Shown here piece after piece: positions 8,746 to 59,759 of a DNA stretch of 64,000 nt. The position numbers and the translations under genes are program-made. A model generated the notes under the pieces. It searched no databases, was not told the DNA's origin, and worked only from the letters and a program-made list of their open reading frames with translations. This stretch comes from an uncultured Dehalococcoidales bacterium. GTDB taxonomy: Bacteria > Chloroflexota > Dehalococcoidia > E44-bin15. The stretch covers positions 33,961-97,960 of the forward strand of contig CAYUCL010000003.1 of assembly GCA_964443325.1 (NCBI GenBank), written 5' to 3'. Numbering within the stretch: position 1 is the stretch's first letter; every line of letters begins with the position of its first letter.

Positions 8746-9546
8746 TTACCGCGCCTCGAACTTTGGCTCCCTCTTTTCTAAGAATGCCCTCACCGCTTCG
8801 GCGTGGTCGGCACTGCGAAAGCAAGCATCAAGCCCCATTGTTTCGAACTTCATTTGCGTGCGAATGTCGGTATCCAACCCCTGATATAGACCTCGCTTTG
8901 CCATCTGGATGGCAAATGGAGGCAGTTTGGCAATGTTGCTTGCCATCTCCTGCGTGGCTTGCTTCAGTTCATCCGCTGGCACAAGCTGATTCAACAGGCC
9001 AATCTCATTAGCTTCAGCGGCACCGAATATGCGAGCAGTGAATACCAGCTCGCAAGCCTTGGCAATACCCACGATGCGAGAAAGAGTATAGGTCGACCCA
9101 AACTCGGGGATGATCCCAATCCGAGCAAACACCGCTCCAAAGCGCGCCTTCTCCGAAGCTATCCTTATATCGCAGTGAAGGCTGATGGTCATGCCGCCAC
9201 CGACGGCGACCCCACCGATGGAAGCAATGATCGGCTTCGATACCACTCGCATCTCCTCAACGACGGCCGGTATCGCGTCACGCCTTTCTTGTCGCACGGG
9301 CGCCTCCTCCTCTCTTTTATCTAGCGCCTGAGCAGAATCGCGTAAATCAGCGCCCGACGAGAACGCATCGCCGGCCCCGGTCAAGATAACCACCCTCACC
9401 TCCGGGTCGGCATCCACTTGGCGAAAAGCCTGCGCCAACTCCACCAGCATTGTGCTGGTCATGGCATTGAGTCTGTCGGGCCGATTCATGGTGATGGTTC
9501 CGATCCAGTCCTTCTTTCCCACCAGAAGTGTCTCATAGTTGTTCAT
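8746..9546 (-). CDS. enoyl-CoA hydratase/isomerase (crotonase superfamily)
   Basis: MNNYETLLVGKKDWIGTITMNRPDRLNAM and GAGDAFSSGADL motifs. Confidence 0.8.
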   Translation of the reverse strand: MNNYETLLVGKKDWIGTITMNRPDRLNAMTSTMLVELAQAFRQVDADPEVRVVILTGAGDAFSSGADLRDSAQALDKREEEAPVRQERRDAIPAVVEEMRVVSKPIIASIGGVAVGGGMTISLHCDIRIASEKARFGAVFARIGIIPEFGSTYTLSRIVGIAKACELVFTARIFGAAEANEIGLLNQLVPADELKQATQEMASNIAKLPPFAIQMAKRGLYQGLDTDIRTQMKFETMGLDACFRSADHAEAVRAFLEKREPKFEAR

Positions 9547-9675
9547 TAGAACCTCTCAGTCACTAAATATGCTTAACCACATTTCTCTCAATTGGTAGCA
9601 GTCATGGTTTTTTACTAAAAGCACTTGGTCACATGTTCCGCAGCGCCATTTAAAATGTTCCTCTACAGCACTCTG

Positions 9676-10476
9676 CTATCGCGACTCGAAATTTGGCTCC
9701 CTCTTTTCCAAGAACGCCTTCACTGCCTCGGCGTGGTCGGCGCTGCGGAAGCAGGCATCAAGCCCCATGGTTTCGAACTGCGTCTGCGTACGAATGTCGG
9801 TATTCTGCCCTTGATAAAGGCCTCGTTTTGCCATCTGGATGGCAAACGGAGGCAGTTTGGCGATGGAACTTGCCATCTCTTTTGTCGCCTGCTTCAGTTC
9901 TTCTGCGGGCACAAGCTGGTTTACCAGCCCAATCTCTTTAGCCTCAGCGGCATCGATTATGCGAGCGGTAAATACCAGCTCACAGGCCTTGGCGATGCCG
10001 ATAATACGAGAAAGAGTATAGGTCGAACCGTATTCGGGGATTATGCCCAAACGTGTGAAGACAGCGCCGAATCGGGCCTTCTCTGAAGCGATCCTTATAT
10101 CAGCACACAAGCCTAAAGTCAAAGCCATCCCAACACAGACACCGTTGATAGACCAGATGATTACCTTCCCCATCTCCCTCATGAAAGTCGGCATAGCGTT
10201 TATAGCCGATTCCGGTGCTGGACCTCCCGCTGGCATCTTCCCTCTCAACTCCAACCCGGCGGCAAAATCGTGTATATCTGCACCGGCAGAAAAGGCATCG
10301 CCTGCCCCAGTCATGACCACAACCCTAACATCGGGATCGCTTGCCATTTCCCGCATGGCTTGGGGAAACTCATCGCGCATCTTGGTATTGAAGGCATTTA
10401 ATCTTTCGGGACGATTGAGTGTGATGGTGCCAATCCACTCCTCCTTTTCCACCAGAAGTGTCTCATAGTTGCTCAT
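9676..10476 (-). CDS. enoyl-CoA hydratase/isomerase, tandem paralog of 8746..9546
   Basis: Start moved to the internal Met (MSNYETLLVEKEEWIGTITLNRPERLNAF), which has a GGGAGG RBS. About 75-80% identity with the downstream paralog along the whole length. Confidence 0.75.
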   Translation of the reverse strand: MSNYETLLVEKEEWIGTITLNRPERLNAFNTKMRDEFPQAMREMASDPDVRVVVMTGAGDAFSAGADIHDFAAGLELRGKMPAGGPAPESAINAMPTFMREMGKVIIWSINGVCVGMALTLGLCADIRIASEKARFGAVFTRLGIIPEYGSTYTLSRIIGIAKACELVFTARIIDAAEAKEIGLVNQLVPAEELKQATKEMASSIAKLPPFAIQMAKRGLYQGQNTDIRTQTQFETMGLDACFRSADHAEAVKAFLEKREPNFESR

Positions 10477-10782
10477 CAGTACCTCCCAGGTATTCGATTT
10501 AGGCAATCTAATTCTTGACCTGTTACACTGCAGGATTGTAGGTTGGCATGAGGCCAAAGTCAAGCAAGGTATCTCGGTCTGTTGCACACATTGGCGGTCT
10601 TACTGGGTTGCTAACTGCGGTGAAAGCTACGATCTGTCTCCATAAACTGTGAATACTGATAAGTTATAATGGAAGGCAAACACAACTAACCCTTGGTGGC
10701 CACCCGAACACAAGAAAGGCGGTGCAAAAGATGAATAGTTTATGTAATCATAGGTTCTCACAGTTGTATGCCCAGGTTTCAG

Positions 10783-18280: not shown

Positions 18281-18429
18281 TAAAGCCTGATCACATGTTC
18301 CCCACGTGGTTTGGAGAACGGCGAAAACTTCGCCTCACCCCAGCCTTTCCCACCTACGAAAAGGAGACAGATCGAAACAGCGGCCGCCATCCGACGAACC
18401 GACGCCGACCGATGTATTCCTCGGGTAAT

Positions 18430-18488
18430 CTAGAGCATCTGCTCTAGGCATCGTTGGAGCCCTTCCCCTGAAGGGCTCCAACCTACCC
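18430..18488. repeat. compound palindromic element, copy A (CTAGAGCA-TC-TGCTCTAG followed by a GTTGGAGC...GCTCCAAC stem)
   Basis: Seen directly. Shares 18/18 and a flanking GGGTA..CTACCC arrangement with copy B at 31455..31508. The second stem differs but stays palindromic (compensatory). Confidence 0.55.
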
Positions 18489-18639
18489 ATGAGCTAGGCC
18501 CTGACTATCTCGGGTGAGACTTCAACCATGGCTCTGGCGAATGCCTTTCCTTTACACTGCAGTCGAACAATGCTATAGTGACAAAGAGAGCGGAGTGGAA
18601 GGGTGACCTACCACTCCTGCTAATTATAAAGGCAGGATA

Positions 18640-21030: not shown

Positions 21031-21744
21031 ATGGGTGAGAAAATGGAACGGAAAATATATCCACAGTGCCACAGATGTGAGAAGAGGGTCTGCTACCCTA
21101 CCATTGGAGTCGATGAAGAGCCCCCATTTAGTGAGGCGCCGGAATTCTGTCCCATGAGGCTTCATAGCGAGATCATACAAAGTGCGCTCTCCGAGTATGA
21201 CAGGAAGGATGTCAGAGAGTTTGCTCGGCTTGCCTCATTACAGGAGTTTGAATGTTATGAGTGGGTGCCAGAGGGCATAAGGACAAGGTTTCCGCGGGTG
21301 GAAGAGACCATACAGTTCGCCAAGAAAAATGGCTATAAGCGAATTGGCATAGCTTTTTGCATCGGTCTTATGAACGAGGTTCGCATGCTGGCACAAATCC
21401 TGGAGCGTAAGGGCTTCGAAGTTGTCTCTGTATGTTGCAAAGCGGGTGCAATCCCCAAGGAAAGAATAGGGTTGAGGGCGGAGGAGAAGATTCCAGGCCC
21501 GGCAATCTTCGAGTCGATGTGCAGTCCGATAACCCAGGCTGAAATCTTGAACGCAGAAGAGGTCGATTTTGTCATCCAACTGGGCCTTTGTGTAGGACAC
21601 GATACCCTTTTTATGAAGTATTGCCGCCTACCCATGACAGTGCTTGCGGTTAAAGACCGGGTTTTAGGACATAACCCGCTAGCTGCGCTGTATCTATCTA
21701 CTTCGCCCTATTACTCCAGGCTTAGGTCTCGAAAGACGGATTGA
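21031..21744 (+). CDS. DUF1847 family metal-binding protein
   Basis: N-terminal Cys cluster PQCHRCEKRVCYP and the overall pattern recalled for DUF1847. Based on recall only. Confidence 0.5.
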   Translation: MGEKMERKIYPQCHRCEKRVCYPTIGVDEEPPFSEAPEFCPMRLHSEIIQSALSEYDRKDVREFARLASLQEFECYEWVPEGIRTRFPRVEETIQFAKKNGYKRIGIAFCIGLMNEVRMLAQILERKGFEVVSVCCKAGAIPKERIGLRAEEKIPGPAIFESMCSPITQAEILNAEEVDFVIQLGLCVGHDTLFMKYCRLPMTVLAVKDRVLGHNPLAALYLSTSPYYSRLRSRKTD

Positions 21745-21799: not shown

Positions 21800-23659
21800 A
21801 TGAGCGATACTGTTGAAAATTTGGCACCACTTGTCTTGAAACTGGACGTCATGGGACGCCTGGGAGAGGCCTTAGCCTGGAGTAATAGTACTAAGGTATT
21901 CGTCTTTGGAGGTATCCCCGGCGAAGAAGTGCTGGCTGAGGTAGTGCGGCAGCACCACAATCGTATCGCCGCGCGAGTGGTCAAGGTGATAGTTTCCTCT
22001 TCCCAGCGGGTGGAACCGCCATGCCCCTATTTCGGGTCGTGTACCGGGTGTCAGTGGCAACACATCCGCTATGAGCACCAGTTGGAGCTTAAGCACATGA
22101 TGGTCAAGGAGGCCATGGAAGCGATGGGAGGGATGGTCCACGCTCCGGTGGCCCCTGTTGTCCCTGCACCCCAGACCCTGGGCTACCGCAACCACGCCCG
22201 CTTCACCGTGGGGCCAGAGGGCGCCCTCGGTTTCGTCAACCGCGAGAGCCGCCGCTTTGTCCACATCGACCAATGTCTACTCATGCACCCATCGATCAAC
22301 GAAGCACTATCCCAGCTTCAGGGCCGCTGCGCAGAGACTACCCAGCTCTCTATCCGCTATGGAGTAAATACCGGCCAGTGGCTGATTCAGCCCACCCTCA
22401 GAAGGCCTGAAGTTCCTCTATCATCTGGCCAGAAAAGCTACGAGGAGGCTCTTCACAGTAAACTCTTCCGCATATCTGCTGCCTCTTTCTTTCAGGTGAA
22501 CACAGCCCAGGCGGAAAGAATGGCTGAGCTGGTGCGGGAGCGCCTCGCATTGACCGGCGAGGAACTGCTTGTAGACGCCTACGCTGGTGTAGCCACCTTC
22601 GCTGTTCTCTTCGCCCCGTACGCCAGCAAGGTCATCGCCATCGAGGAGTCGGCCTCTGCTATCAAGGATGCCCAGGTCAACATCCAGGGTTTGACTAACA
22701 TTGAGCTTGCCCAGGATAAGACGGAAAAGTTGCTACAGTCCCTCCCGCAAGTACCTGATGCCCTGATTCTGGACCCACCGCGCACCGGATGCCACCCCAC
22801 AGTCCTGCAGACCATCCTGCATCGGCCGCCGCAGCGGATAGTGTATGTCTCGTGTGACCCGTGGGCTCTGGCCCGCGACCTGCGAGTGTTATGCCACGGG
22901 CCTTTTGTTCTGGAAGAGGTGCTACCCATTGACCTCTTTCCCCAGACTCACCACATCGAGTGCATCGCCACCCTATCTTATAGCCCAGAAAGGCAGTATG
23001 CCTTCCAATCACGCCAACAGCTTGTGCTGGCTTCCGAATCCCCCAGGCGGCAGGAGATCATGGCCACCATGGGCCTCACCTTCCAAACAATACCATCGAA
23101 GGTTGATGAGACTCCACCATCCTATGGTGATCCGGTAGCTATTGCCCAGAAAGAGGCCCTCGACAAAGCCCTGGCTGTGGCATCTGACCTGCGCGAGGGA
23201 ACGGTTATCGGAGCCGACACTGTGGTTGCCGATGGGGATGATATCCTGGGCAAGCCTGCAACGGAGGAAGAGGCCTATGCCATGCTGCGCAGGCTTCGTG
23301 GTAAGGAACATCGGGTTATCACCGGGTTAGCCCTGGTAGACGCTGCCAGTGGCGAACAGCTCAGCGGCTACCGCATCAGCCACGTGCGCATGCGAGAATA
23401 TAGCGATGAAGAGATCACTGCCTATATCGCCGCCGGTGATGCCTGGGACAAGGCTGGTGCCTACGGCATCCAGGATACCCAGTTTCATCCCGTGGCTAAG
23501 GTGATGGGCTGCTACCTGAACGTTGTCGGTCTTCCCCCCTGCATACTGCTGCGTCTACTACACCGAATGGGCATATATCCAGCCATCGACCCCAACTGGG
23601 TCCCACCAGGGAAATGCCGCGATTGCCATCGCCTGGCCAGAGATGCCAGGGATAAATGA
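21800..23659 (+). CDS. bifunctional fusion: RNA (uracil-5)-methyltransferase (RlmD/RumA family, TRAM + 4Fe-4S + SAM MTase) fused in frame to a Maf nucleotide pyrophosphatase
   Basis: aa 1-about 395: TRAM region, CPYFGSCTGCQWQH cluster, DAYAGVATFA SAM motif, LDPPRTG and the family C-terminus VYVSCDPWALARDL. aa about 403-600: Maf signature LASESPRRQEIM...IGADTVV.DG.ILGKP...LSG..H.V.TGLAL...AGAYGIQ. There is no stop between the two. Confidence 0.7.
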   Translation: MSDTVENLAPLVLKLDVMGRLGEALAWSNSTKVFVFGGIPGEEVLAEVVRQHHNRIAARVVKVIVSSSQRVEPPCPYFGSCTGCQWQHIRYEHQLELKHMMVKEAMEAMGGMVHAPVAPVVPAPQTLGYRNHARFTVGPEGALGFVNRESRRFVHIDQCLLMHPSINEALSQLQGRCAETTQLSIRYGVNTGQWLIQPTLRRPEVPLSSGQKSYEEALHSKLFRISAASFFQVNTAQAERMAELVRERLALTGEELLVDAYAGVATFAVLFAPYASKVIAIEESASAIKDAQVNIQGLTNIELAQDKTEKLLQSLPQVPDALILDPPRTGCHPTVLQTILHRPPQRIVYVSCDPWALARDLRVLCHGPFVLEEVLPIDLFPQTHHIECIATLSYSPERQYAFQSRQQLVLASESPRRQEIMATMGLTFQTIPSKVDETPPSYGDPVAIAQKEALDKALAVASDLREGTVIGADTVVADGDDILGKPATEEEAYAMLRRLRGKEHRVITGLALVDAASGEQLSGYRISHVRMREYSDEEITAYIAAGDAWDKAGAYGIQDTQFHPVAKVMGCYLNVVGLPPCILLRLLHRMGIYPAIDPNWVPPGKCRDCHRLARDARDK

Positions 23660-31017: not shown

Positions 31018-31454
31018 GGATAACCTCCTTTCTAAAGCACTCGGTTGCCGTTTGGTCATCCATGGCCCAGGGAATTCGTGAGGAATCGCTCGGGGTGGGA
31101 TTTGCAAACCTTCAACCAGAGGAATAGTCTACCATAGAATTGTATGCATGTCAAGCCAGCGTACTCGTTCAGGTGACCGGTATCACCTCACCCTCCCCAC
31201 TTTCCTTGTTATTTTGACATGAACTCCTTCCTTGTCATTCTGAGTGCAGCAAAGAATCCCATGGCGCTCAGGACAGGCTCCGGCGAAGAATCTCGGTTTG
31301 GTAGAGACCCTTATGCATGCCCAGTGAAACAGTAGTGGCGGGTTTTAAACCCGCCCCTACAAAATGACATCCGCCCAATTAATTGGGCAACTACACTTAT
31401 CAACTCATACAATTGCCGTAGTTGCCTGATTTATCCGAAACATTGGCAAACAGG

Positions 31455-31508
31455 GTAGCCTAGAGCATCTGCTCTAGGCTTGGTTGGAGCATATGCTCCA
31501 ACCTACCC
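31455..31508. repeat. compound palindromic element, copy B, immediately 3' of the HpaB-family gene stop
   Basis: GGGTAGC-CTAGAGCATCTGCTCTAG-GC-TT-GGTTGGAGCAT/ATGCTCCAACC-TACCC. On the minus-strand transcript it is followed by UGUUUG. Confidence 0.55.
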
Positions 31509-31515
31509 CATTGTT

Positions 31516-33003
31516 TTAGATGTCCACCTCTGGTGGCCATTCTGGCAGGTCCTTAAGTTCAGGGTGTTCCTTCCACCCAGGTATACCGGCAATTCTCTTA
31601 GCAATGGCTTTATACCTTGGCCAATCAGCAGAAGCGTAAAGAGCCATCCTTTGTGCTGCTAGAGAGCCTTCAGCATGAATAACGGTAGCGTCATGGCTAT
31701 CACCGGTCAGATCCTTTACCAGCCTTATAGCGCGAAGCCGATGTTCAGTTGGTACGCCACCCTTGGCGGCAAGATATTTGTCAATAAAAGGCTTTTCTTC
31801 AGGGTTCATCCAATCTTTGTAGCCAAAGACGGTTGTTGTGACTCCACCCGTGATATCGGCAAGAAGCTTGGAAGCCTCGTGCTGACCATTGGCAAACATG
31901 AACTTGGCTATATTGGTATACATCAGGTTGGGAGCAGCCAAGCCAATATCTTCATACATGTCAGGGTGCTCACAAGCTGCCTTGGCCATGGTATCGTTTA
32001 TCTGGCAATGCATGGCAAGCCATGCCAATTTCTCCTGGATATGAGGATACTTATCCAGACCATTGTATTCAGCCATCAGCGCCGCCGCGCCGGCAGTTTG
32101 CTCCAGTGATATCACTTTGTGAGTAGTGCCAAAGAGACGGTGGAAAACGCCAAAGGTCCAGGCAATATCTCTGGAAAACTGCCATTCGCCACACATAAAC
32201 ACCCTGTTCCAGGGGACAAAAACATCATCAAATACAATCATGCACTCACTAATCCCCGCAGAACGTCCGGTGAGAGGCCAATTCCACTGGGCTTCCTCAC
32301 CCGTTTCCGTAAAATGCGGTGGAGTGGTTATTAATGTGATGCCTTTAGCATTTATGGGAGTGGCAAAGACTAGTGCATAGTCCTTGTCTTCTTCACGGTG
32401 AGCCCGACATGGCGAAATGATCAGTTCGTTGGCATCGGGGGTAGCGCTTATGTGCGTCTTGGCTCCTCGCACTACTATGCCGTCTTTTTGCCTATCAACA
32501 ACCCTGACATAGAAATCCTGATGCTGTTCCTGCGCTGAGGGTCGAAGGCCCCTGTTGCCCTTAACATCGGTAATGGCTCCGGTGATAGCCGGGTCCGCTT
32601 TTTTCAGGTGCTGGCGATAATCCTCAACAGCATCCATATAATGCGTGCCTAATTCCCGATCCATTCTTGTAGCGACAACACCTGCGGCAGCCAGGGCATC
32701 AGGACCCATACCACTAATGCCTGCTCCTACCCGGAGAGCGGTTATATAAACATCCCTTCGTCTTATAAGGTCTTCAGCGGTTTTGGGCTGATTCCACAGG
32801 AACATGACTCTTTCCCCGTCCTCCTCCATGGTAATCAGGTCTCGATATTGAGGATCATTAGCAAGAACATAACCCATGGCTCTACGCTGGATGGCTCCCT
32901 TCATAAGGGGATGCTTCGTTATGTCGGGTATCTTCTCCCCCATAAGATAAATCACTCTTCCGTCATTCAAGCTTTCTATATACTGCTGTGGTGTCCTAAT
33001 CAT
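31516..33003 (-). CDS. HpaB / 4-hydroxybutyryl-CoA dehydratase family flavoenzyme (4-hydroxyphenylacetate 3-hydroxylase-like fold)
   Basis: 495 aa with acyl-CoA-dehydrogenase-like HpaB architecture. Paralog of 45345..46784. No CxxxC / H-x6-C Fe-S ligand pattern of AbfD was noticed. Confidence 0.65.
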   Translation of the reverse strand: MIRTPQQYIESLNDGRVIYLMGEKIPDITKHPLMKGAIQRRAMGYVLANDPQYRDLITMEEDGERVMFLWNQPKTAEDLIRRRDVYITALRVGAGISGMGPDALAAAGVVATRMDRELGTHYMDAVEDYRQHLKKADPAITGAITDVKGNRGLRPSAQEQHQDFYVRVVDRQKDGIVVRGAKTHISATPDANELIISPCRAHREEDKDYALVFATPINAKGITLITTPPHFTETGEEAQWNWPLTGRSAGISECMIVFDDVFVPWNRVFMCGEWQFSRDIAWTFGVFHRLFGTTHKVISLEQTAGAAALMAEYNGLDKYPHIQEKLAWLAMHCQINDTMAKAACEHPDMYEDIGLAAPNLMYTNIAKFMFANGQHEASKLLADITGGVTTTVFGYKDWMNPEEKPFIDKYLAAKGGVPTEHRLRAIRLVKDLTGDSHDATVIHAEGSLAAQRMALYASADWPRYKAIAKRIAGIPGWKEHPELKDLPEWPPEVDI

Positions 33004-52084: not shown

Positions 52085-52648
52085 TTGAATGCTCTCGATA
52101 GAAATTGCTCAGATACCTTGCTTTTCTACGCGTAACATAAACCATAACCCCATTGTTAGTCAATAGCAGAAAAGGTACCTTAATCCGTGGATTCTTCTTG
52201 AGGGCTGAGGGAGTCCTCTCCCTCAGCTTTCGTGAAGGAATCCTTCACAGAAGGACCTTCACGCCTCAGAAAAAACCAACTAACAGACGAGTCTTTTGAA
52301 TCCGAACTCACAGACCAAGGAGGTAGGTGCCAGAGATATTTTGCCAACCATAAACCGGGCCATAATGACAGATAACACCTTATATCTTAAGATAACTTTA
52401 TACGGTTAATAGGAGCGTAGGCTGTTCTCTCGGACCACTTTCGGCCAGTTTGTGAGACCCCATGCTGCCGATGCCACCTGGTATGTTGAATGTGCTATAA
52501 TTCCGCGAGGGGCTTAAGGCAGAGTGTTTTGCATTCTGCCACTACGAACGACCAGGCATGCAAAATCTACGCTTGATAGCGTGTCAAAGCTATACAAGCA
52601 GGCAGAGCTTGGTCAGTATTGCTACATATACAACGGGGGGCTGATTGT

Positions 52649-53542
52649 ATGAATCATAAATGGCAGCATCGTTTTGTGAATACAAATGGAATCCGTATGC
52701 ACTACGTTGAGCAGGGAGAGGGTTTCCCCGTGCTCCTCCTCCATGGTTTTCCCGAGCTTTGGTATTCATGGAGATACCAGATACCGGAGTTGGCCAATGC
52801 CGGCTTCCACGCCATTGCACCCGACCTGCGCGGCTATGGTGAGACAGACAAGCCTGAGGGCATCGAGTCCTATGACATCCATCATTTGATTGGAGACCTG
52901 GTAGGTTTACTTGATGCTCTTGAGTTGGAGCGCGCAGTGATTGTAGGGCATGATTGGGGTGGCATTATTACCTGGCAGATGGCTTTGATATGTCCAGAGC
53001 GCGTTGAGCGAGTGATCTCACTGAATACTCCTTTCCAACTTCACGGCCCCGTGCGGCCAACAGAGGCCTTCAGCCAAACCCCTGACGGCCGGTTCAACTA
53101 TATCATCTATTTTCAGCAGCCGGGACAGGCCGAAGCGGATATTGAGCCTAATATAGAGGCCTTTTTGGAAACGACGATGCGCCGTCTCGCCACAGAAGAA
53201 AGCTTCATTACCGAGGAGACCCTCAAGGTCTTTTCTAATGCCTTCCACAAAGGGGGCCTAACTGGCCCGATTAATTACTATCGCAACTTCGACCGCAACT
53301 GGGAGACAACCGCTCATCTCACAGGCCGCAAAGTCACTATGCCCGCACTCATGATTTGCGCCGAAAATGACTCGATACTCACACCACAAATGACGAATGG
53401 TATGGAACGTCATGTTCCCAATCTCACCACTCGCCTGGTTAAGAATTGCGGGCACTGGACCCAGCAAGAGCGACCCGACGAGGTCAACCGCCTGATCATA
53501 GAATTCCTTCACGACCTGAAGAGGAGGCGAGACAATGTTTGA
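52649..53542 (+). CDS. alpha/beta hydrolase, epoxide hydrolase / haloalkane dehalogenase-like
   Basis: HGFPELWYSWRYQ motif and GHDWGG nucleophile elbow. The start at the internal Met is preceded by a G-rich RBS. Confidence 0.75.
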   Translation: MNHKWQHRFVNTNGIRMHYVEQGEGFPVLLLHGFPELWYSWRYQIPELANAGFHAIAPDLRGYGETDKPEGIESYDIHHLIGDLVGLLDALELERAVIVGHDWGGIITWQMALICPERVERVISLNTPFQLHGPVRPTEAFSQTPDGRFNYIIYFQQPGQAEADIEPNIEAFLETTMRRLATEESFITEETLKVFSNAFHKGGLTGPINYYRNFDRNWETTAHLTGRKVTMPALMICAENDSILTPQMTNGMERHVPNLTTRLVKNCGHWTQQERPDEVNRLIIEFLHDLKRRRDNV

Positions 53543-54563
53543 ACTAATATTTGATGAAAAGAAATGCTTGGCTTGCCAGACTTGTGATTGTCTCACCAAG
53601 TGCCAGTATATGGATATAGACATAGATACAGCGAAAACAGAGATGAGGAAGATAATCAACGGTGAAGATTCTTTCGTATTACACCAGTGCGTAACATGCT
53701 ATGCCTGCGAGGAATACTGCAAAATGGGGAACCACCCCTTCTATCTAATCGCTGAGCGCCAGGAAGAACTGGGCATACCGCCTACGCCCAAGCCTGTTAT
53801 CAGGCAATGGGTTCAATTGGCTATCCCGCAGATGGGAGAACTCAAGATTGAACAGGTTAAGGAGCCGGTTCTCAGTATGTGCATGTTCGGTCAGCTTGCT
53901 GGTTCAATCCAGGGGAAACTGTTTGACGGTGTCTCCATTCTACCAAGGGAGAATCAAGAAGGGATGCAATTCTTCTGTCAGTTGATGTACCTGCACTTTG
54001 CCAGGACTTCCGTAATAAAAGAGAGGCTCCCGAGGATAATAGAGAACATCACCAAGCACAATATCACAGAGCTCATATGCTTCCACGACGAGTGCTACGG
54101 TACCTTTACCTCATACGCACCTGCCGTGGGCATCGAAGTCCCGTTCAAACCAATTCATTTCTTTGAGTATCTGTACAACAGGCTAGTGGAACTCAAGGAC
54201 GACATAAAACCGCTGAATTTGAAGGTGGCTTATCAGCGTCCCTGCTCGTCCAGGCTTTCCCCAGAAAAACTCCACTTCGTCGACGATATCTTCAACCTGA
54301 TAGGGGTGGAGAGCGTCAAAAGAGAGTATGTTGGCGAGAATGCCCTATGCTGCGGAGCACCTATCAGAGGACAGAGAAAGGAAGGAAGCCGTCAACTCGC
54401 TATTGATTTGCAGCGGAGAAACATACAGGATATGATTGACGCTGGGGCCGAATTCTGCGTTTTCAACTGCCCCTATTGCTTCCTTACCCTGTCGGAGCGC
54501 GTTACCAAGAGCGGCTTGAAGCCCGTCTTTATGGGCGACCTTTGCCGGCTCGCCGTTGGCTAG
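53535..54563 (+). CDS. Fe-S oxidoreductase with two ferredoxin-type Cys clusters and a C-terminal CCG domain (HdrD/GlpC/LutA-like)
   Basis: CLACQTCDCLTKC, CVTCYACEEYC, LCCGAP and CVFNCPYC motifs. ATGTTTGA overlap with the upstream hydrolase gene. Confidence 0.7.
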   Translation: MFELIFDEKKCLACQTCDCLTKCQYMDIDIDTAKTEMRKIINGEDSFVLHQCVTCYACEEYCKMGNHPFYLIAERQEELGIPPTPKPVIRQWVQLAIPQMGELKIEQVKEPVLSMCMFGQLAGSIQGKLFDGVSILPRENQEGMQFFCQLMYLHFARTSVIKERLPRIIENITKHNITELICFHDECYGTFTSYAPAVGIEVPFKPIHFFEYLYNRLVELKDDIKPLNLKVAYQRPCSSRLSPEKLHFVDDIFNLIGVESVKREYVGENALCCGAPIRGQRKEGSRQLAIDLQRRNIQDMIDAGAEFCVFNCPYCFLTLSERVTKSGLKPVFMGDLCRLAVG

Positions 54564-54588
54564 AAACTAGCATAATGGAGATGATACT

Positions 54589-55968
54589 GTGGATTCAATA
54601 TTTAAATCATTAGCTGAAATAGTTGGAGAAAGTCACGTCTCCAGCCAACCAGAGGAGCTTTATATCTATTCTTATGACCTTGGCACGACTGAGCCTCATC
54701 GTCCGGACTATATAGTGGCGCCGAGGACGACTCATGAAGTGCAAGAAATAGTTAAGCTAGCAAATAGGGGGAAAATCCCGGTGGTTCCTCTTGGAGGCGG
54801 GTTGTCCCTAGCTGGTCTGGCTGTGCCTCAGCGGGGAGGCATCGTGCTGGACCTAAAGAGGATGGACACAATAATAGAGGTAAATGGAAAGGCAAGGTAT
54901 GTAGTTGTCGAGGCTGGCGTTTCACAGGGGCAGCTAATATCCTACCTGGAGAAGTACCACCCCAAACTGAGACACTCAGAGCCACAGGCACCAGGTCCAG
55001 CCACGATTGCGGGCAATGTAGCGATACACGGTCAAGGCGATCTGGCTCAGCCGTATGGCTTCAATTCCGATATGGTGAACGGGCTAGAGGTTGTCTTACC
55101 AACAGGAGAGTTGTGCAAAATCGGCTCCTGTTCAGTATCTCCCATTTGGTTCACCCTACACCCCTTGCCCGATTTAGGTCTCTTCCTCGGATGGTCTGGC
55201 ACCACGGGCATCATTACCAAGCTGTCGCTTAAGCTTTTCCCATCGAAAAGGATCAGGGAAGTGGAGCAGTTTATAGTCGAGGATGCGGAGCTGGTTCCAG
55301 AAATTATATACAAAATCAGTCACACAGAGATGGCTGAAGATATATTCGCCGGAACTCAAACGACCATTCCTGCTCGTATGGGTCTCCACCATGTAACTAT
55401 GTATATCACCGCTGATTCGGAAAAGGAACTCGAATTCAAGACAGGGTTAATCTGGGATGACGCACTCGGGGAATATATTCGGAATGGAGATGGGGGGTTC
55501 GTCGATTTACCACCCCCTATAAAAGCTCGCTTTACCGAGAGACCCAGTATGCTGCTGTCTACAGTCGCTGATGCCAAAGAGGGTGGAGGCTTTGAATATG
55601 TCGGGGGCATTATGCCAATGGAAACCTACCCTGAGTGCTGCAAGCGAGGGGCTGAGATCTGTTCCAGACACGATATTCCTCAACTGTTGATCGCGCGGGT
55701 TATTGGACGGTCTCACTCTATGATGTTTGCCTGGGCATATGTATTCAATCGCGCTGACCTTGAGAGCATCAGGCAAGCGAGGGAAGCCGTACATGAAACG
55801 GACGACCTTGTCCTGGAGTTGGGTGGGGCTATCTGGAAACCCGGCGTTTATGGACAGAGGCTAATGATGCAACGAATTGACCCTACTACTCTCAAACTCA
55901 TGGAGATGGTAAAGGGGCTTCTCGACCCTAACGGCATTATGAACCCTGGAAATTGGGAGGCAGTATAA
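54589..55968 (+). CDS. FAD-linked oxidase (GlcD / D-lactate dehydrogenase family)
   Basis: FAD_binding_4 region PRTTHEVQEIVKLANRGKIPVVPLGGGLS and a C-terminal FAD-oxidase_C region. GTG start. Confidence 0.8.
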   Translation: MDSIFKSLAEIVGESHVSSQPEELYIYSYDLGTTEPHRPDYIVAPRTTHEVQEIVKLANRGKIPVVPLGGGLSLAGLAVPQRGGIVLDLKRMDTIIEVNGKARYVVVEAGVSQGQLISYLEKYHPKLRHSEPQAPGPATIAGNVAIHGQGDLAQPYGFNSDMVNGLEVVLPTGELCKIGSCSVSPIWFTLHPLPDLGLFLGWSGTTGIITKLSLKLFPSKRIREVEQFIVEDAELVPEIIYKISHTEMAEDIFAGTQTTIPARMGLHHVTMYITADSEKELEFKTGLIWDDALGEYIRNGDGGFVDLPPPIKARFTERPSMLLSTVADAKEGGGFEYVGGIMPMETYPECCKRGAEICSRHDIPQLLIARVIGRSHSMMFAWAYVFNRADLESIRQAREAVHETDDLVLELGGAIWKPGVYGQRLMMQRIDPTTLKLMEMVKGLLDPNGIMNPGNWEAV

Positions 55969-56147
55969 TTGTTCTTGCAGACCGGTAAGATCTCTGCCTG
56001 CCGCACAGAGACAATAGCAGGTAGCCAACCCCTTGAATTCGTAGAATAATTTGACATAGTATTGTTCTCTGATAGAATGGTGCTGCTTGCCAGTTAGGAT
56101 ATTGCAGTAGTCTATCAATGTAGTAACACAAGCGAGGGGGTGAATTC

Positions 56148-57194
56148 ATGTATGAATTAAAATTTGATGAGAGGAAATGCATAGCCTGTAAGACTTGTGA
56201 TTGCCTCACCAAGTGCCAGTATATGGATATAGACAGGGATACAGCAAAAACAGAGATGCGCAAAATAATCAATGGTGAGGATTCCTTTGTATTACATGAT
56301 TGCGTAACATGCTATGCCTGCGAGGAGTACTGTAAAATGGGCAACCACCCCTTCTATTTGATCGCTGAACGCCAGGAAGAACTAAATATACCGCCTATGC
56401 CCAGGCCTCTTATCAAACAAGCTGTCCAATTGGGCATCCCCTGGAGGGGAGATCTCAAGATTGAGGAGGTCAAGGAGCCTGTGCTAAGTATGGGTATGTT
56501 CGCTCCGCTTGCCAATTTAATACAGGGGAAGCTTTTTGAAGGTCTCTCTCTCCTATCAGTGGATCCTCGAACGGCGGTTCATCTTTTTTGTCAGCTCATG
56601 TACCTGCACTTCGCCAGGACATCGGTAATAAAGGAGAAATTGCCAGGCATCATAGAAACTATCGCCAAACACAATGTCAAAGAGGTCATATTTTTCCATG
56701 ACGAGTGCTACGGTACCTTTACCTCATATGCCCCTGCGGTTGGCATTGAAGTCCCGTTCAAATCTATTCATTTTCTCGAGTATCTCTACAACAGGCTAGT
56801 GGAACTCAAGGATGATATCAAACCGCTGAATCTTAAAGTGGCTTACCAGCGCCCCTGCTCATCCCGTCTTTCCTCGGATAAGCTCCACTTTGTCGATGAT
56901 ATCTTCAACCTGATAGGGGTAGACGGCGACAGAGAGTATGTTGGCGAGAATGCCCTGTGCTGTGGAGGTACGATCATAGGGCAAAGATATGAAGGAAGAT
57001 ATGAACTCGCTGCTGATGTACAAAGGAGAAATATTGAAGATATGGTGAACGCTGGCGCTGAGCTTTGTGTCTTTAATTGCCCTGCTTGCTACGATACCCT
57101 AAGACGTTTGGTCACCAGAAATGGCATATGGCCCATATTTATGAGCGATCTTTGCCGACTCGCCATAGGCGAGCAACCTGCAGGATGGAGGTGA
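56148..57194 (+). CDS. Fe-S oxidoreductase with CCG domain, paralog of 53535..54563
   Basis: Same Cys motifs, about 80% identical. Confidence 0.7.
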   Translation: MYELKFDERKCIACKTCDCLTKCQYMDIDRDTAKTEMRKIINGEDSFVLHDCVTCYACEEYCKMGNHPFYLIAERQEELNIPPMPRPLIKQAVQLGIPWRGDLKIEEVKEPVLSMGMFAPLANLIQGKLFEGLSLLSVDPRTAVHLFCQLMYLHFARTSVIKEKLPGIIETIAKHNVKEVIFFHDECYGTFTSYAPAVGIEVPFKSIHFLEYLYNRLVELKDDIKPLNLKVAYQRPCSSRLSSDKLHFVDDIFNLIGVDGDREYVGENALCCGGTIIGQRYEGRYELAADVQRRNIEDMVNAGAELCVFNCPACYDTLRRLVTRNGIWPIFMSDLCRLAIGEQPAGWR

Positions 57195-57198
57195 TATT

Positions 57199-58569
57199 AT
57201 GGATTCCATATACAAAGCCCTGGTTGAAATAGTGGGGGAGGACCATGCTTCCACCGAGCAGGAGGAGCTTTACATCCATTCTCGCAGTCTAGGGACGGTA
57301 GAGCCCCACCAGCCCGACTATGTAGTGGCGCCGAGGACAACAGAGGAAGTTCAACAAATAGTTAAGCTGGCAAATAGAGAGAAAATTCCCGTAGTTCCAC
57401 TGGGGGGTGGATTATCTCTAACCGGTCTAGTCATGCCTCTGCGAGGAGGCATTGTGCTAGACATGAAAAGGATGGATACAATAATAGAGGTAAACGAAAA
57501 GGCAAGGTATGTAATTGTCGAGGCTGGCGTTTCACAGGGTAAACTAATATCCTGCCTGGAGAGGTATCATCCTAATCTGATGCACTCAGAGCCTATGGCA
57601 CCAGCCCAAGCCACAATTGCGGGCAATGTGATGATACATGGTCAAGGTGACCTGGCGCAGCCGTATGGTTTTAACTCTGACATGGTTAACGGACTTGAGG
57701 TTGTACTACCAACAGGAGAGGTGTGTAAAATAGGCTCCTGTTCGGTATCTCCCTATTGGTTCACAGCACACCCTTTACCTGATTTAGGGCTCTTCCTCGG
57801 ATGGTTTGGCACCACAGGCATCATTACCAAGCTGTCGCTTAGGCTTTATCCCTGCAAAAAGATAAACGGTGTAGATCGATTCTTGGTAGAGGATGCTGAG
57901 CTAATTCCAGAGATCCTACTCAAGATCACTCACACAGAGATGGTGGGAGATCTGGTTTCTTCCATCCAAGGACTCCCACTTGCGGTTAGGGGAATCCACA
58001 TCATAACAATCAACATAAACGGAGATTCCGAGAAGGAGATCGAGTTTAAGAGGCAATTGATCCGCGAAGATATCCTAGGGGAATATATTCGGAATGGGGA
58101 TTGCGGATTTATGGGTACGACGCCAGATTTGAGAACAGGGCAACAGAGACCTACGATTACAACGGTCGCTGACATTAAGAGGGGTGGTGGATTTGAATAT
58201 GTTGGAGCAATACTACCGGTGGATACATATCCCGAGTGTTGCAGAGAAGGTGAGGCGATCTCTTCAAGACACGACATTATCTACACTTTAGGAGGACGAG
58301 TTATCGGAAGGTCTCACGCCATGATGTTTTTCTGGTCATATGCATTCAATCGAGCAGACCCAGAAAGCGTCAGACAGGCAAGGGAAGCACTACATGAATC
58401 AGATGAGCTTGCCCTTAAACTAGGAGGGGTCCCCTGGAAGCCAAGTGTTTATGGACAGAAGTTAATTATGGAGAAGATGGAACCAAATACCCTCGAATTG
58501 ATGAGGAAAATAAAGGAGCTTCTCGACCCTAACGGAATTATGAACCCTGGAAATTGGGAGGTAATGTAA
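57199..58569 (+). CDS. FAD-linked oxidase (GlcD family), paralog of 54589..55968
   Basis: About 75% identical, same domain layout. Confidence 0.8.
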   Translation: MDSIYKALVEIVGEDHASTEQEELYIHSRSLGTVEPHQPDYVVAPRTTEEVQQIVKLANREKIPVVPLGGGLSLTGLVMPLRGGIVLDMKRMDTIIEVNEKARYVIVEAGVSQGKLISCLERYHPNLMHSEPMAPAQATIAGNVMIHGQGDLAQPYGFNSDMVNGLEVVLPTGEVCKIGSCSVSPYWFTAHPLPDLGLFLGWFGTTGIITKLSLRLYPCKKINGVDRFLVEDAELIPEILLKITHTEMVGDLVSSIQGLPLAVRGIHIITININGDSEKEIEFKRQLIREDILGEYIRNGDCGFMGTTPDLRTGQQRPTITTVADIKRGGGFEYVGAILPVDTYPECCREGEAISSRHDIIYTLGGRVIGRSHAMMFFWSYAFNRADPESVRQAREALHESDELALKLGGVPWKPSVYGQKLIMEKMEPNTLELMRKIKELLDPNGIMNPGNWEVM

Positions 58570-59759
58570 TGGCTCTTGCAGATTATAAATACAAAGATGT
58601 CATACACAGGTGCTTCAGGTGTGGCTACTGTAAGTTTCCAAGTAACTGGATGGAGGTGAATAACTGCCCAGCTTATGCCAGATTCCGTCTGGAAAGCTAC
58701 TCCACAGGGGGGCGGTTGTGGCTGATAAGAGCCTGGCTAAATGATGAAATAGAGTGGACGGACCATCTTGCCCAGATTGTATATTCATGCGCCGCATGTA
58801 AAAACTGTGTTGAGCAATGCCCATATCGCTTCCATGATGATATCGTCGACATGATCATAGCAGCAAGGAGTGAGATGGTTGAGAGAGGTTCAATACCATC
58901 TGTTGTCAAGGAGTTTTTAGAGAATATTCAGAGGCAGGGAAATCCGTATGGGAATGCTAGATCAAAGAGGGGCGAATGGGTTGAGGGAATGGGAATAAAG
59001 CAATATGAGGGACAGGAATATCTGTATTATGTTGGCTGTGTAGGGTCGTATGATACCAGAGCCAAAGAGACAGCGAGAACGCTTGGAGAGGTGCTGCTAA
59101 AAGCCGGCGTATCTTTTGGGGTGATGGGCAATGATGAAAATTGCGATGGTAACGAGGTGAGCAAGCTCGGCGAGGAGAGTTTATTCCAGTCATTAGCTGA
59201 GGACAACATCCAGCAATTCAAAGATTTAGGGGTAGAGAAGATTGTTGCCCTCTCTCCGCATTCCTACAACGCCATTAAAAACGACTATCCTATGTTTAAT
59301 GGTAGCTTTGAGGTATTTCACTACACACAACTTCTTCGAGACCTTATCAAAGGGGGAAGGCTAGATATTTCCAGTGGATTCGATGCCAGGGTTACCTACC
59401 ATGACCCCTGTTTCCTCGGCCGGTGGAACAAGGAGTATGAAGCTCCAAGACAAGTGCTAAACGCTATTCCTGGAGTCGAACTGGTAGAGATGGAGAGGAG
59501 TAGAGAGGGCGCCCTGTGCTGTGGTGGCGGCGGCGGCAACTTCTATACCGATTTTCTTGGCGGGAGCGAGGATAGCCCGGCAAGAATCAGAATCCGCGAA
59601 GCCTGCGCTACGGGAGCCAGCATAGTTGCGACAGCCTGTCCCAACTGTATGACCATGCTGGAGGATGCTGTCAAAGCGGAAGGGCTTGAAGAGAGTATTA
59701 AAGTAAAGGATATCTCTGAAATTGTAGCTGAGGCTTGCCTGGCAAAAAGGGCTGATTAG
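58569..59759 (+). CDS. GlcF-like Fe-S protein (two 4Fe-4S ferredoxin motifs plus two CCG domains)
   Basis: CFRCGYCKF...NCP, CAACKNCVEQCP, CCGGGGGNF and CPNCM motifs. ATG at 58569 with a GGAGGT RBS (TAATG overlap with the upstream gene). Confidence 0.7.
   Translation: MALADYKYKDVIHRCFRCGYCKFPSNWMEVNNCPAYARFRLESYSTGGRLWLIRAWLNDEIEWTDHLAQIVYSCAACKNCVEQCPYRFHDDIVDMIIAARSEMVERGSIPSVVKEFLENIQRQGNPYGNARSKRGEWVEGMGIKQYEGQEYLYYVGCVGSYDTRAKETARTLGEVLLKAGVSFGVMGNDENCDGNEVSKLGEESLFQSLAEDNIQQFKDLGVEKIVALSPHSYNAIKNDYPMFNGSFEVFHYTQLLRDLIKGGRLDISSGFDARVTYHDPCFLGRWNKEYEAPRQVLNAIPGVELVEMERSREGALCCGGGGGNFYTDFLGGSEDSPARIRIREACATGASIVATACPNCMTMLEDAVKAEGLEESIKVKDISEIVAEACLAKRAD

Follow-up and report, generated by a model that had tools for sequence, protein, structure and literature searches.

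A GTAG-tagged inverted doublet of two different hairpins dispersed in Dehalococcoidia, probably a family of repetitive extragenic palindromes

The window analysed here, a 64-kb stretch of contig CAYUCL010000003.1 from an uncultured Dehalococcoidales bacterium, contained two copies of one palindromic element, copy A at 18423-18488 and copy B at 31453-31508. They are real, non-random copies of a doublet family of repetitive extragenic palindromes (REPs). Both elements probably belong to a REP family specific to Dehalococcoidia, in which two different hairpins form an inverted doublet that carries its 5'-GTAG tags outermost. Multi-copy, dispersed and extragenic, the elements occur in either orientation. 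The family appears to be new, and its kind is well known. No paper on such repeats in Dehalococcoidia was found in the searchable literature. The compared region of the window was identical to part of contig DAOUED010000294.1 (GCA_034430535.1), and the sequence of copy B was identical in six public contigs, with no polymorphism among them. Homologs with source names, matched to proteins of the window, were labelled Chloroflexota or Dehalococcoidales.

Copies A and B shared a single layout, composed of GGGTAG, hairpin 1 (H1), 4-5 nt, hairpin 2 (H2) and CTACCC. Their parts are listed below, with the scores of a covariance model (CM R1) built from the wider family.

18423..18488, plus strand: copy A, a complete REP doublet (GGGTAAT, H1, GCATC, long-form H2, CTACCC); CM R1 68.2 bits, E=5e-17
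18423-18429, plus strand: GGGTAAT segment of copy A
18425..18428, plus strand: left tag of copy A, degenerate, GTAA instead of GTAG (GTAG at the same position in orthologs L146 and L147)
18430..18447, plus strand: H1 of copy A, CTAGAGCATCTGCTCTAG, composed of CTAGAGCA-TC-TGCTCTAG
18453..18482, plus strand: H2 of copy A, long form, GTTGGAGCCCTTC-CCCT-GAAGGGCTCCAAC, with a 13-bp stem, a CCCT loop and the apex module CCTTC-N4-GAAGG
18483-18488, plus strand: CTACCC segment of copy A
18483..18486, minus strand: right tag of copy A, GTAG, which heads H2
31453..31508, plus strand: copy B, a complete REP doublet (GGGTAGC, H1, GCTTG, short-form H2, CTACCC); CM R1 86.4 bits, E=4e-22
31453-31459, plus strand: GGGTAGC segment of copy B
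31455..31458, plus strand: left GTAG tag of copy B
31460..31477, plus strand: H1 of copy B, an 18-mer identical to that of copy A
31483..31502, plus strand: H2 of copy B, short form, GTTGGAGCAT-ATGCTCCAAC
31503-31508, plus strand: CTACCC segment of copy B
31503..31506, minus strand: right tag of copy B, GTAG

A first-pass annotation of this DNA had described two copies of a compound palindromic element carrying an 8+2+8 palindrome, and both were present as described. The exact H1 18-mer occurred twice in the window against 0.05 occurrences expected from shuffles, and the stem GTTGGAGC...GCTCCAAC also occurred twice, with none expected. The element was where it had been placed at copy A, though its start moved from 18430 to 18423. 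The GGGTAR..CTACCC bracket that had been proposed was recovered as GGGTAAT (A) or GGGTAGC (B) with CTACCC, and there the likeness stopped: in pairwise alignment it was confined to GGGTA..TACCC and the flanks were unrelated.

On either strand, A and B gave a three-way junction in which an outer helix enclosed the two hairpins. Folded as RNA they reached -39 to -42 kcal/mol (z about -6.3 to -7.4), and folded as DNA about -22 kcal/mol (z about -7). The reverse complement of the right arm, GGGTAG-GTTGGAGCATCYGCTCCAAC, paralleled the left arm, GGGTAG-CCTAGAGCATCTGCTCTAGG, so that in each arm a 5'-GTAG tag heads a hairpin. The two arms lie in inverted orientation, tags outermost, and their hairpins are 4-5 nt apart. 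Arm length was 24-34 nt, stem length 8-13 bp and loop length 2-4 nt; the arms differed at 4-5 stem positions. Both had a common core, GAGCA-NN-TGCTC, and differed in outer stem positions; each arm therefore pairs with itself and not with the other arm.

The family was delimited by one scan of 185,579 species-representative genomes for the exact 18-mer, which returned 52 loci (labelled here with L numbers, as are the further loci compared). The whole architecture was present at 42 of them, in 15 metagenome-assembled genomes (MAGs) labelled Chloroflexi, Chloroflexota, Dehalococcoidia or Dehalococcoidales. The remaining ten loci, in other phyla, had the bare 18-mer alone, in line with an estimate of about 17 chance matches (596 Gb, both strands, divided by 4^18). 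Exact-seed matches alone gave up to 7 copies per MAG among the 15. The canonical form was GGGTAGC CTAGAGCATCTGCTCTAG GCAYG GTTGGAGC-(G/A/C)GAT-GCTCCAAC CTACCC. CM R1, built from 28 distinct copies, recovered two copies only in the window with filters off, a density of 2 copies in 64 kb, and about 45 copies in the genome loci. This genome-scale search bore out the dispersed, REP/MITE-like repeat (MITE, miniature inverted-repeat transposable element) suggested by the first-pass annotation. In 80 metagenome loci around orthologs of the HpaB-family gene next to copy B, the model found three copies (L067, L069 and L070), the latter two about 1 kb away. A separate exact-pattern search found no copy in viral contigs.

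Nearly all copies (44 of 47) lay outside open reading frames (ORFs) of at least 90 aa. Genes flanked 32 copies on both sides; 16 of these copies were between tandem, 7 between convergent and 9 between divergent genes. Relative to tandem genes, 8 were in the same and 9 in the opposite orientation. Several variants were recognised: solo GGGTAGC-H1-GCTACCC forms, which were rare (L008, L010); insertions within H2 or between H1 and H2 (L028, L040, L042, L048); flipped hairpin loops (L003, L044); and a chimera in which H2 was substituted by another repeat (L031, L032). Copies in L037, L048, L006 and L016 were located at MAG contig ends or a few bases from them, which suggests that the repeat family breaks short-read assemblies.

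The element had all the structural features of an HH heterodimer of GTAG REPs. A survey that sorted REPs into 24 families described them as 20-40 bp stem-loops with a GTAG tag and placed them in several phyla, Chloroflexi among them (Di Nocera et al. 2013, PMC3733652). In that survey REP dimers were common, 'HH' denoted dimers with the GTAG termini outside, and some partners were 1-5 bp apart; many dimers were heterodimers, for which the authors suggested possible protection from hairpin-processing nucleases (PMC3733652). In the present family we likewise found short stem-loops (arms of 24-34 nt), GTAG at their 5' foot, multi-copy dispersal, extragenic location and an HH dimer or cluster. Four further hairpin pairs, with unrelated sequences, were found in the carrier MAGs in the layout GTAG, hairpin, 5 to 10 nt, hairpin, CTAC:

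L025, 7505-7555: GTAG-hairpin 1-hairpin 2-CTAC pair
L034, 1874-1924: GTAG-hairpin 1-hairpin 2-CTAC pair
L014, 3392-3441: GTAG-hairpin 1-hairpin 2-CTAC pair
L039, 332-377: GTAG-hairpin 1-hairpin 2-CTAC pair

Since four other families share it, the layout is a general feature of the carrier genomes. This tight layout may constitute a lineage-specific REP subclass. Across 314 kb of carrier loci, GTAG, TAGG and TAGT were enriched 3.4- to 4.9-fold at hairpin feet outside the doublet family, a result that is only supportive because C-rich tetramers were equally enriched. In the window alone GTAG enrichment did not discriminate, as there were too few hairpins and sub-stem starts inflated the controls.

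Pair counts over the 28 distinct copies gave standard pairs in 98% of cells. RNA folding and covariance modelling, both proposed with the first-pass annotation, gave the z values reported above and compensatory changes at three hairpin pairs. The pair at the base of H2 was G-C in 20 and A-T in 6 of the distinct copies. A compensatory A-T to G-C change was found in H1 of L067, and a C-G to A-T change separated L006 from its ortholog L049, whose flanks were 81-86% identical. The outer GGGTAG/CTACCC helix had 8 unpaired cells and zero compensatory changes in the same copies; we therefore regard it as a sequence tag conserved on both strands and not as a selected stem. Each tag position was conserved in 24-28 of the 28, with the variants GTAA, GTGG and TTAG. 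The invariance of H1 is partly a matter of ascertainment, because the genome scan required the exact 18-mer.

The difference between A and B at the apex of H2 had been read in the first-pass annotation as covariation, implying selection for structure. It was instead an indel of an alternative, 10-nt self-complementary module (GAGC-[CCTTC-N4-GAAGG]-GCTC versus GAGC-[NGAT]-GCTC) and not base-by-base covariation; the compensatory changes that would support such selection were found elsewhere in the family. The long-form apex module of copy A recurred in L003, L017, L027 and L033. Loci L023 and L033 are orthologous, with flanks 94% identical, and one carried the short form while the other carried the long form. 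The apex therefore changes in place.

Evidence of copying came from MAG SZUA-161, in which four copies (L001, L002, L009, L015) were identical over 60 nt. They had about 25 nt of common flank on each side, and the loci were otherwise without homology. Identical copies at unrelated loci of one genome require a copying process. In several MAGs, including SZUA-161, a unit of about 113 nt enclosed the core, and its ends were imperfectly inverted copies, CTAGGAGsgTGTCyGAaAA ... TTcTCaGACAggCTCCTAG. These extended flanks were conserved around the core in L001, L002, L015, L038, L039, L006, L049 and L017 and were present in a degenerate or weak version at copy B; copy A and many other copies had none. 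The outer flanks were never found without the core, and no target-site duplication was evident at the ends of either the core or the extended unit.

The copy-A site was occupied in two further genomes, L146 and L147, in which the neighbouring MBL-fold proteins were 94% and 81% identical to that of the window. Among the three genomes, H1 and its spacer, the tags and the H2 5' arm were nearly invariant. The apex of H2 (window 18460-18475; alignment A4 columns 184-218) was in three different states: the long form in the window; in L146, the short form plus a 22-nt insertion; and in L147, a 21-nt deletion that took away the apex and the 3' arm. L148 (71% identity), a more distant relative in synteny, had a 114-nt spacer without the element; the DNA no longer aligned, and divergence is too great for an insertion boundary to be recognised there. 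In L067, where the coding DNA of the HpaB ortholog was 77% identical, the element kept its orientation and followed the stop codon at a distance of 39 nt. Since the intergenic DNA does not align, an independent insertion is possible there. Among the downstream regions of the 32 closest HpaB orthologs the element was present only in L067, and the others did not align.

RAYT genes, which encode REP-associated tyrosine transposases, are typically flanked by their own REPs (PMC3733652). A tblastn search with E. coli RayT (from NC_000913) detected nothing significant, either in the window or at any of the loci; the strongest hit (E=0.027) was to part of an L015 ORF, which turned out to be RayT-like. 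The encoded protein (L015:1532-2122, 196 aa) had an HUH-like motif, NHFHGV, and a YxxxNP region. It matched Pfam Y1_Tnp at 25 bits (cut-off 23) and NCBIfam REP_Tyr_transpos at 72.9 bits (E=2e-20), below the cut-off of 80. More than 2,000 homologs were found, many named RayT by their sources. This RAYT-like gene, in MAG SZUA-161, was 1.1 kb from a copy of the doublet, with one gene intervening. A related hairpin was found 30 nt downstream of the gene. At three loci with L015 homologs, the gene was flanked by GTAGGGGCACGGTGCACCGTGCCCCTAC-type palindromes and contained one.

A palindrome GGGGCACG...CGTGCCCC was observed inside the RAYT-like coding sequences of L015 (1838-1855), L140 (4281-4302), L141 (647-668) and L142 (669-690). 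It is of the same type as the GTAG...CTAC palindromes flanking those genes. The same palindrome was present in L038 (2561-2578), where a hidden Markov model (HMM) detected no RAYT.

By analogy with E. coli and Pseudomonas, each GTAG-plus-hairpin module would serve, in single-stranded DNA, as the binding and guide module for a RAYT-type HUH tyrosine (Y1) transposase. In E. coli, TnpA_REP depends on the 5' GTAG at the hairpin foot, both to bind and to cleave at CT dinucleotides (Messing et al. 2012, PMC3479197). Such a transposase would cleave and rejoin single-stranded DNA, copying the doublet to new intergenic sites. Arms with different stems would favour separate folding over a single hairpin that is long and unstable. 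As a secondary effect, resident copies may stabilise the 3' ends of mRNAs or serve as binding sites for host proteins. It is the shared GTAG-plus-hairpin architecture that suggests mobilisation by a RAYT.

Several results weigh against assigning the doublets to a mobile REP family. The RAYT-like gene of L015 and its homologs were flanked by a different type of palindrome, GTAGGGGCAC..., and for this reason the L015-type RAYT clade appears to be paired with another GTAG-REP type. No RAYT gene was found in the 64-kb window or in element-bearing loci other than L015: tblastn with the L015 protein detected none in the window or the other element loci, and an HMM of 121 sequences of the L015 clade, run against six-frame translations, detected no further gene in either. 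No cognate RAYT for the doublet family was thus found in the window and element loci searched. The copies seen in the source genome were the two within the 64-kb window scanned. No clean pair of filled and empty insertion sites was found, all orthologous pairs examined being filled. Persistence at orthologous sites (with MBL-fold proteins at 94% and 81% identity, and near HpaB at 77% DNA identity) would also fit a host function with little current mobility.

A tentative proposal, to which we give a rather low probability, is that the doublet has gone beyond a selfish repeat and is a domesticated, sequence-constrained three-way-junction element of Dehalococcoidia. It draws on the near-invariant H1 and tags across 15 species-level MAGs, on their retention at orthologous intergenic sites next to a protein diverged to as little as 81% identity, on compensation in situ, and on the H2 apex as a hot spot for swap, insertion and deletion. 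If true, it would imply a host-level function or a long-term partnership of the REPIN-RAYT type in a streamlined uncultivated lineage.

It is unlikely, in our assessment, that the element is no longer mobile and serves the host as a selected double-hairpin site, either for protein binding on DNA or as a stabiliser of mRNA 3' ends or weak terminator. E. coli bacterial interspersed mosaic elements (BIMEs) bind IHF or gyrase. At the copy-A site about 37 of 40 columns in H1, the tags and the H2 5' arm were invariant in the three genomes, against about 65% in the left flank. The compensatory changes in the L067 element, downstream of its HpaB ortholog, and in situ between L006 and L049 point in the same direction, and no empty site was found. 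However, neither copy in the window was followed by a T-tract, and the 9 of 32 copies between divergent genes, together with the random orientation, argue against a primary role at 3' ends. The apex of H2 differed in all three orthologs at the copy-A site, including the 21-nt deletion that destroys H2, so that the full structure is unconstrained there. Identical copies at unrelated loci of one genome also require copying.

A MITE derived from and moved by a DDE-type insertion sequence (IS) seems very improbable. Its unit would be the stretch of about 113 nt with imperfect terminal inverted repeats, and its parent IS would have ends matching CTAGGAGGGTGTCCGAAAA or GGGTAGCCTAGAGCA. In its favour are the flanks conserved around the core at eight loci, and weakly at copy B; the outer flanks were not once found apart from the core, so that copying appears to involve the longer unit. 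Yet no target-site duplication was evident at either set of ends, about 0.75 Mb of loci yielded no parent IS sharing the ends, and copy A and many others lack the extended flanks. The GTAG-plus-hairpin arms, and the other families with the same layout, point to the REP/HUH type.

A strand-specific structured non-coding or cis-regulatory RNA is scarcely credible. The fold was very stable (z about -7), and some stems contained G-U pairs. However, the two strands folded equally, the element occurred in every intergenic context, its orientation to tandem genes was 8 same versus 9 opposite, and mismatches appearing as G-T on the given strand equalled those appearing as G-T on the other strand (A-C), with 7 of each. 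Rfam at the gathering threshold and ARAGORN gave no Rfam family, tRNA or tmRNA match in the whole window. The lack of a T-tract, of orientation bias and of Rfam or tRNA matches argues against both a strand-specific RNA and a primary terminator role. Two proposals of the first-pass annotation, a structured RNA and a terminator function for copy B, were accordingly not upheld. We also rejected chance similarity (about 45 further copies exist in 15 Dehalococcoidia MAGs), a tRNA-like element (no tRNA or tmRNA match in the window), a riboswitch or small RNA (no Rfam match, no strand bias) and a canonical terminator (no T-tract, no fixed orientation, 9 of 32 copies between divergent genes).

Returning to the REP doublet, its two copies in the window lay in different settings. 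Copy A was within a 359-nt gap (18281-18639) between a diphthamide-synthase-like gene and an MBL-fold hydrolase gene, in keeping with the intergenic gap of about 360 bp without a U-tract described initially. Copy B, which had been said to abut the stop of the HpaB-family gene, was separated by 7 nt from that stop codon (31516-31518), which ends a minus-strand gene encoding HpaB_N and HpaB domains. It clustered with three more GTAG-tagged hairpins:

31332..31360, no strand assigned: solo GTAG...CTAC palindrome GTAGtGGCGGGTTTTAAACCCGCCCCTAC, which resembles the GGGGC-type palindromes flanking RAYT-like genes elsewhere
31371..31394, minus strand: GTAG-tagged hairpin GTAGTTGCCCAATTAATTGGGCGG, with related copies in L037 and L041
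31418..31441, plus strand: GTAG-tagged hairpin GTAGTTGCCTGATTTATCCGAAAC with a degenerate 3' arm, with intact relatives GTAGTTGCCTGATTCATCAGGC in L023 and L033

A scan with a terminator consensus matched neither copy A nor copy B, but near copy B it matched two of these neighbouring hairpins, at 31355-31337 and 31390-31371. The same intergenic region contained a second kind of repeat at 31234-31292, GTCATTCTGAGTGCAGCAAAGAATCCC...GCTCAGGACAGGCTCCGGCGAAGAATCTC. The pattern GTCATTCTGAG-N(4-30)-GAAGAATC occurred 12 times across 8 carrier MAG loci, and related 'cctgtcctgagcttgtcgaaggg' motifs flanked many family copies.

Upstream of the MBL-fold gene beside copy A, the segment 18551-18642 contained a promoter-like TTTACA-17-TATAGT. 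The 5' leader of the gene had two hairpins, GGAGTGG...CCACTCC and CCTGC...GCAGG, of which the latter overlapped the ribosome-binding site. About 90% of the positions in this segment were invariant relative to orthologs L146 and L147, exceeding the rest of the spacer.

Other repeats in the window were of different kinds. A compound palindrome at 52197-52270 was composed of GGGCTGAGGGAG-tcct-CTCCCTCAGC, then GTGAAGGA-atc-CTTCAC..., with a CTGAGG/CCTCAG bracket, and then AAAAAAA. It gave a marginal match to the covariance model (13.9 bits, E=0.13), and its sequence was unrelated to the REP doublet family. Inverted-repeat arms of 30 nt, 83% complementary, were found at 21701-21730 and 21866-21895. 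They reach from the end of ORF 21031-21744 into the start of ORF 21800-23659, and long-range RNA pairing may bridge this gene junction. Three stretches, 1-2050, 8747-10489 and 53521-58582, contained direct repeats of 270-300 nt with 72-85% identity (spacings of 1481, 930 and about 2610 nt). These tandem paralogous duplications are probably duplicated genes.

For the window, copies A and B are best regarded as ordinary repeats and not as a regulatory device specific to the neighbouring genes. For annotation, a recurrent intergenic feature of Dehalococcoidia MAGs can now be named and has its own covariance model. Assemblies break at such repeats, which can also pass for terminators, operators or small RNAs. 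Work on the GTAG-REP superfamily has centred on Proteobacteria, and its range would be extended to an uncultivated class of Chloroflexota. Orthologous copies have been kept across deep divergence, and if a cognate RAYT were identified, the lineage could be used to test REP doublets as long-term, vertically inherited partners of their hosts.

Among known systems, Rho-independent terminators share with the family stable GC-containing hairpins and, at copy B, a position immediately after a stop codon. Unlike them, the doublets have no T/U tract, form a bracketed double hairpin, and are found in either orientation and also between divergent genes. The BIMEs of E. coli and its TnpA_REP (RayT) system are closer, with GTAG at the 5' foot of the hairpin, different REP types paired in alternating orientation, and clusters downstream of genes. 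E. coli REP stems are imperfect and mismatched, whereas those of the doublet family are perfect, and the BIME linkers are longer, some with an IHF site, compared with a spacer of 4-5 nt here.

REPIN-RAYT systems of Pseudomonas and Enterobacteria (Bertels & Rainey 2011) resemble the family in that the inverted doublet appears to be the copied unit, in that identical doublets were found at unrelated loci of one genome (the four SZUA-161 loci), and in a persistence that looks long-term and mostly vertical. At least one carrier genome also had a RayT-like Y1 transposase. In contrast to REPIN-RAYT, no single-copy cognate RAYT flanked by the doublet family was found in the loci searched. Classical REPINs consist of near-identical REPs with a longer spacer and form one long hairpin; the arms of the doublet differ and fold separately into a three-way junction, and minimum free energy and centroid folds gave two hairpins on both strands.

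The closest likeness is to the HH heterodimers of GTAG REPs (Di Nocera, De Gregorio & Rocco 2013, BMC Genomics 14:522), with GTAG at the 5' foot, inverted units, tags outside and different stems. About a quarter of the copies in the doublet family lay between divergent genes, whereas Di Nocera et al. report a preference for tandem or convergent genes (PMC3733652). The family also differs from the published GTAG REPs in its extended tag, GGGTAG, and in its host class, as Dehalococcoidia were outside that survey. Like those REPs, it is extragenic and multi-copy, with several families per genome and clustering. Its spacer of a few bp recalls GTAG-17 of Opitutus terrae, and the GTAG superfamily has already been reported in Chloroflexi, as GTAG-23 of Thermomicrobium roseum.

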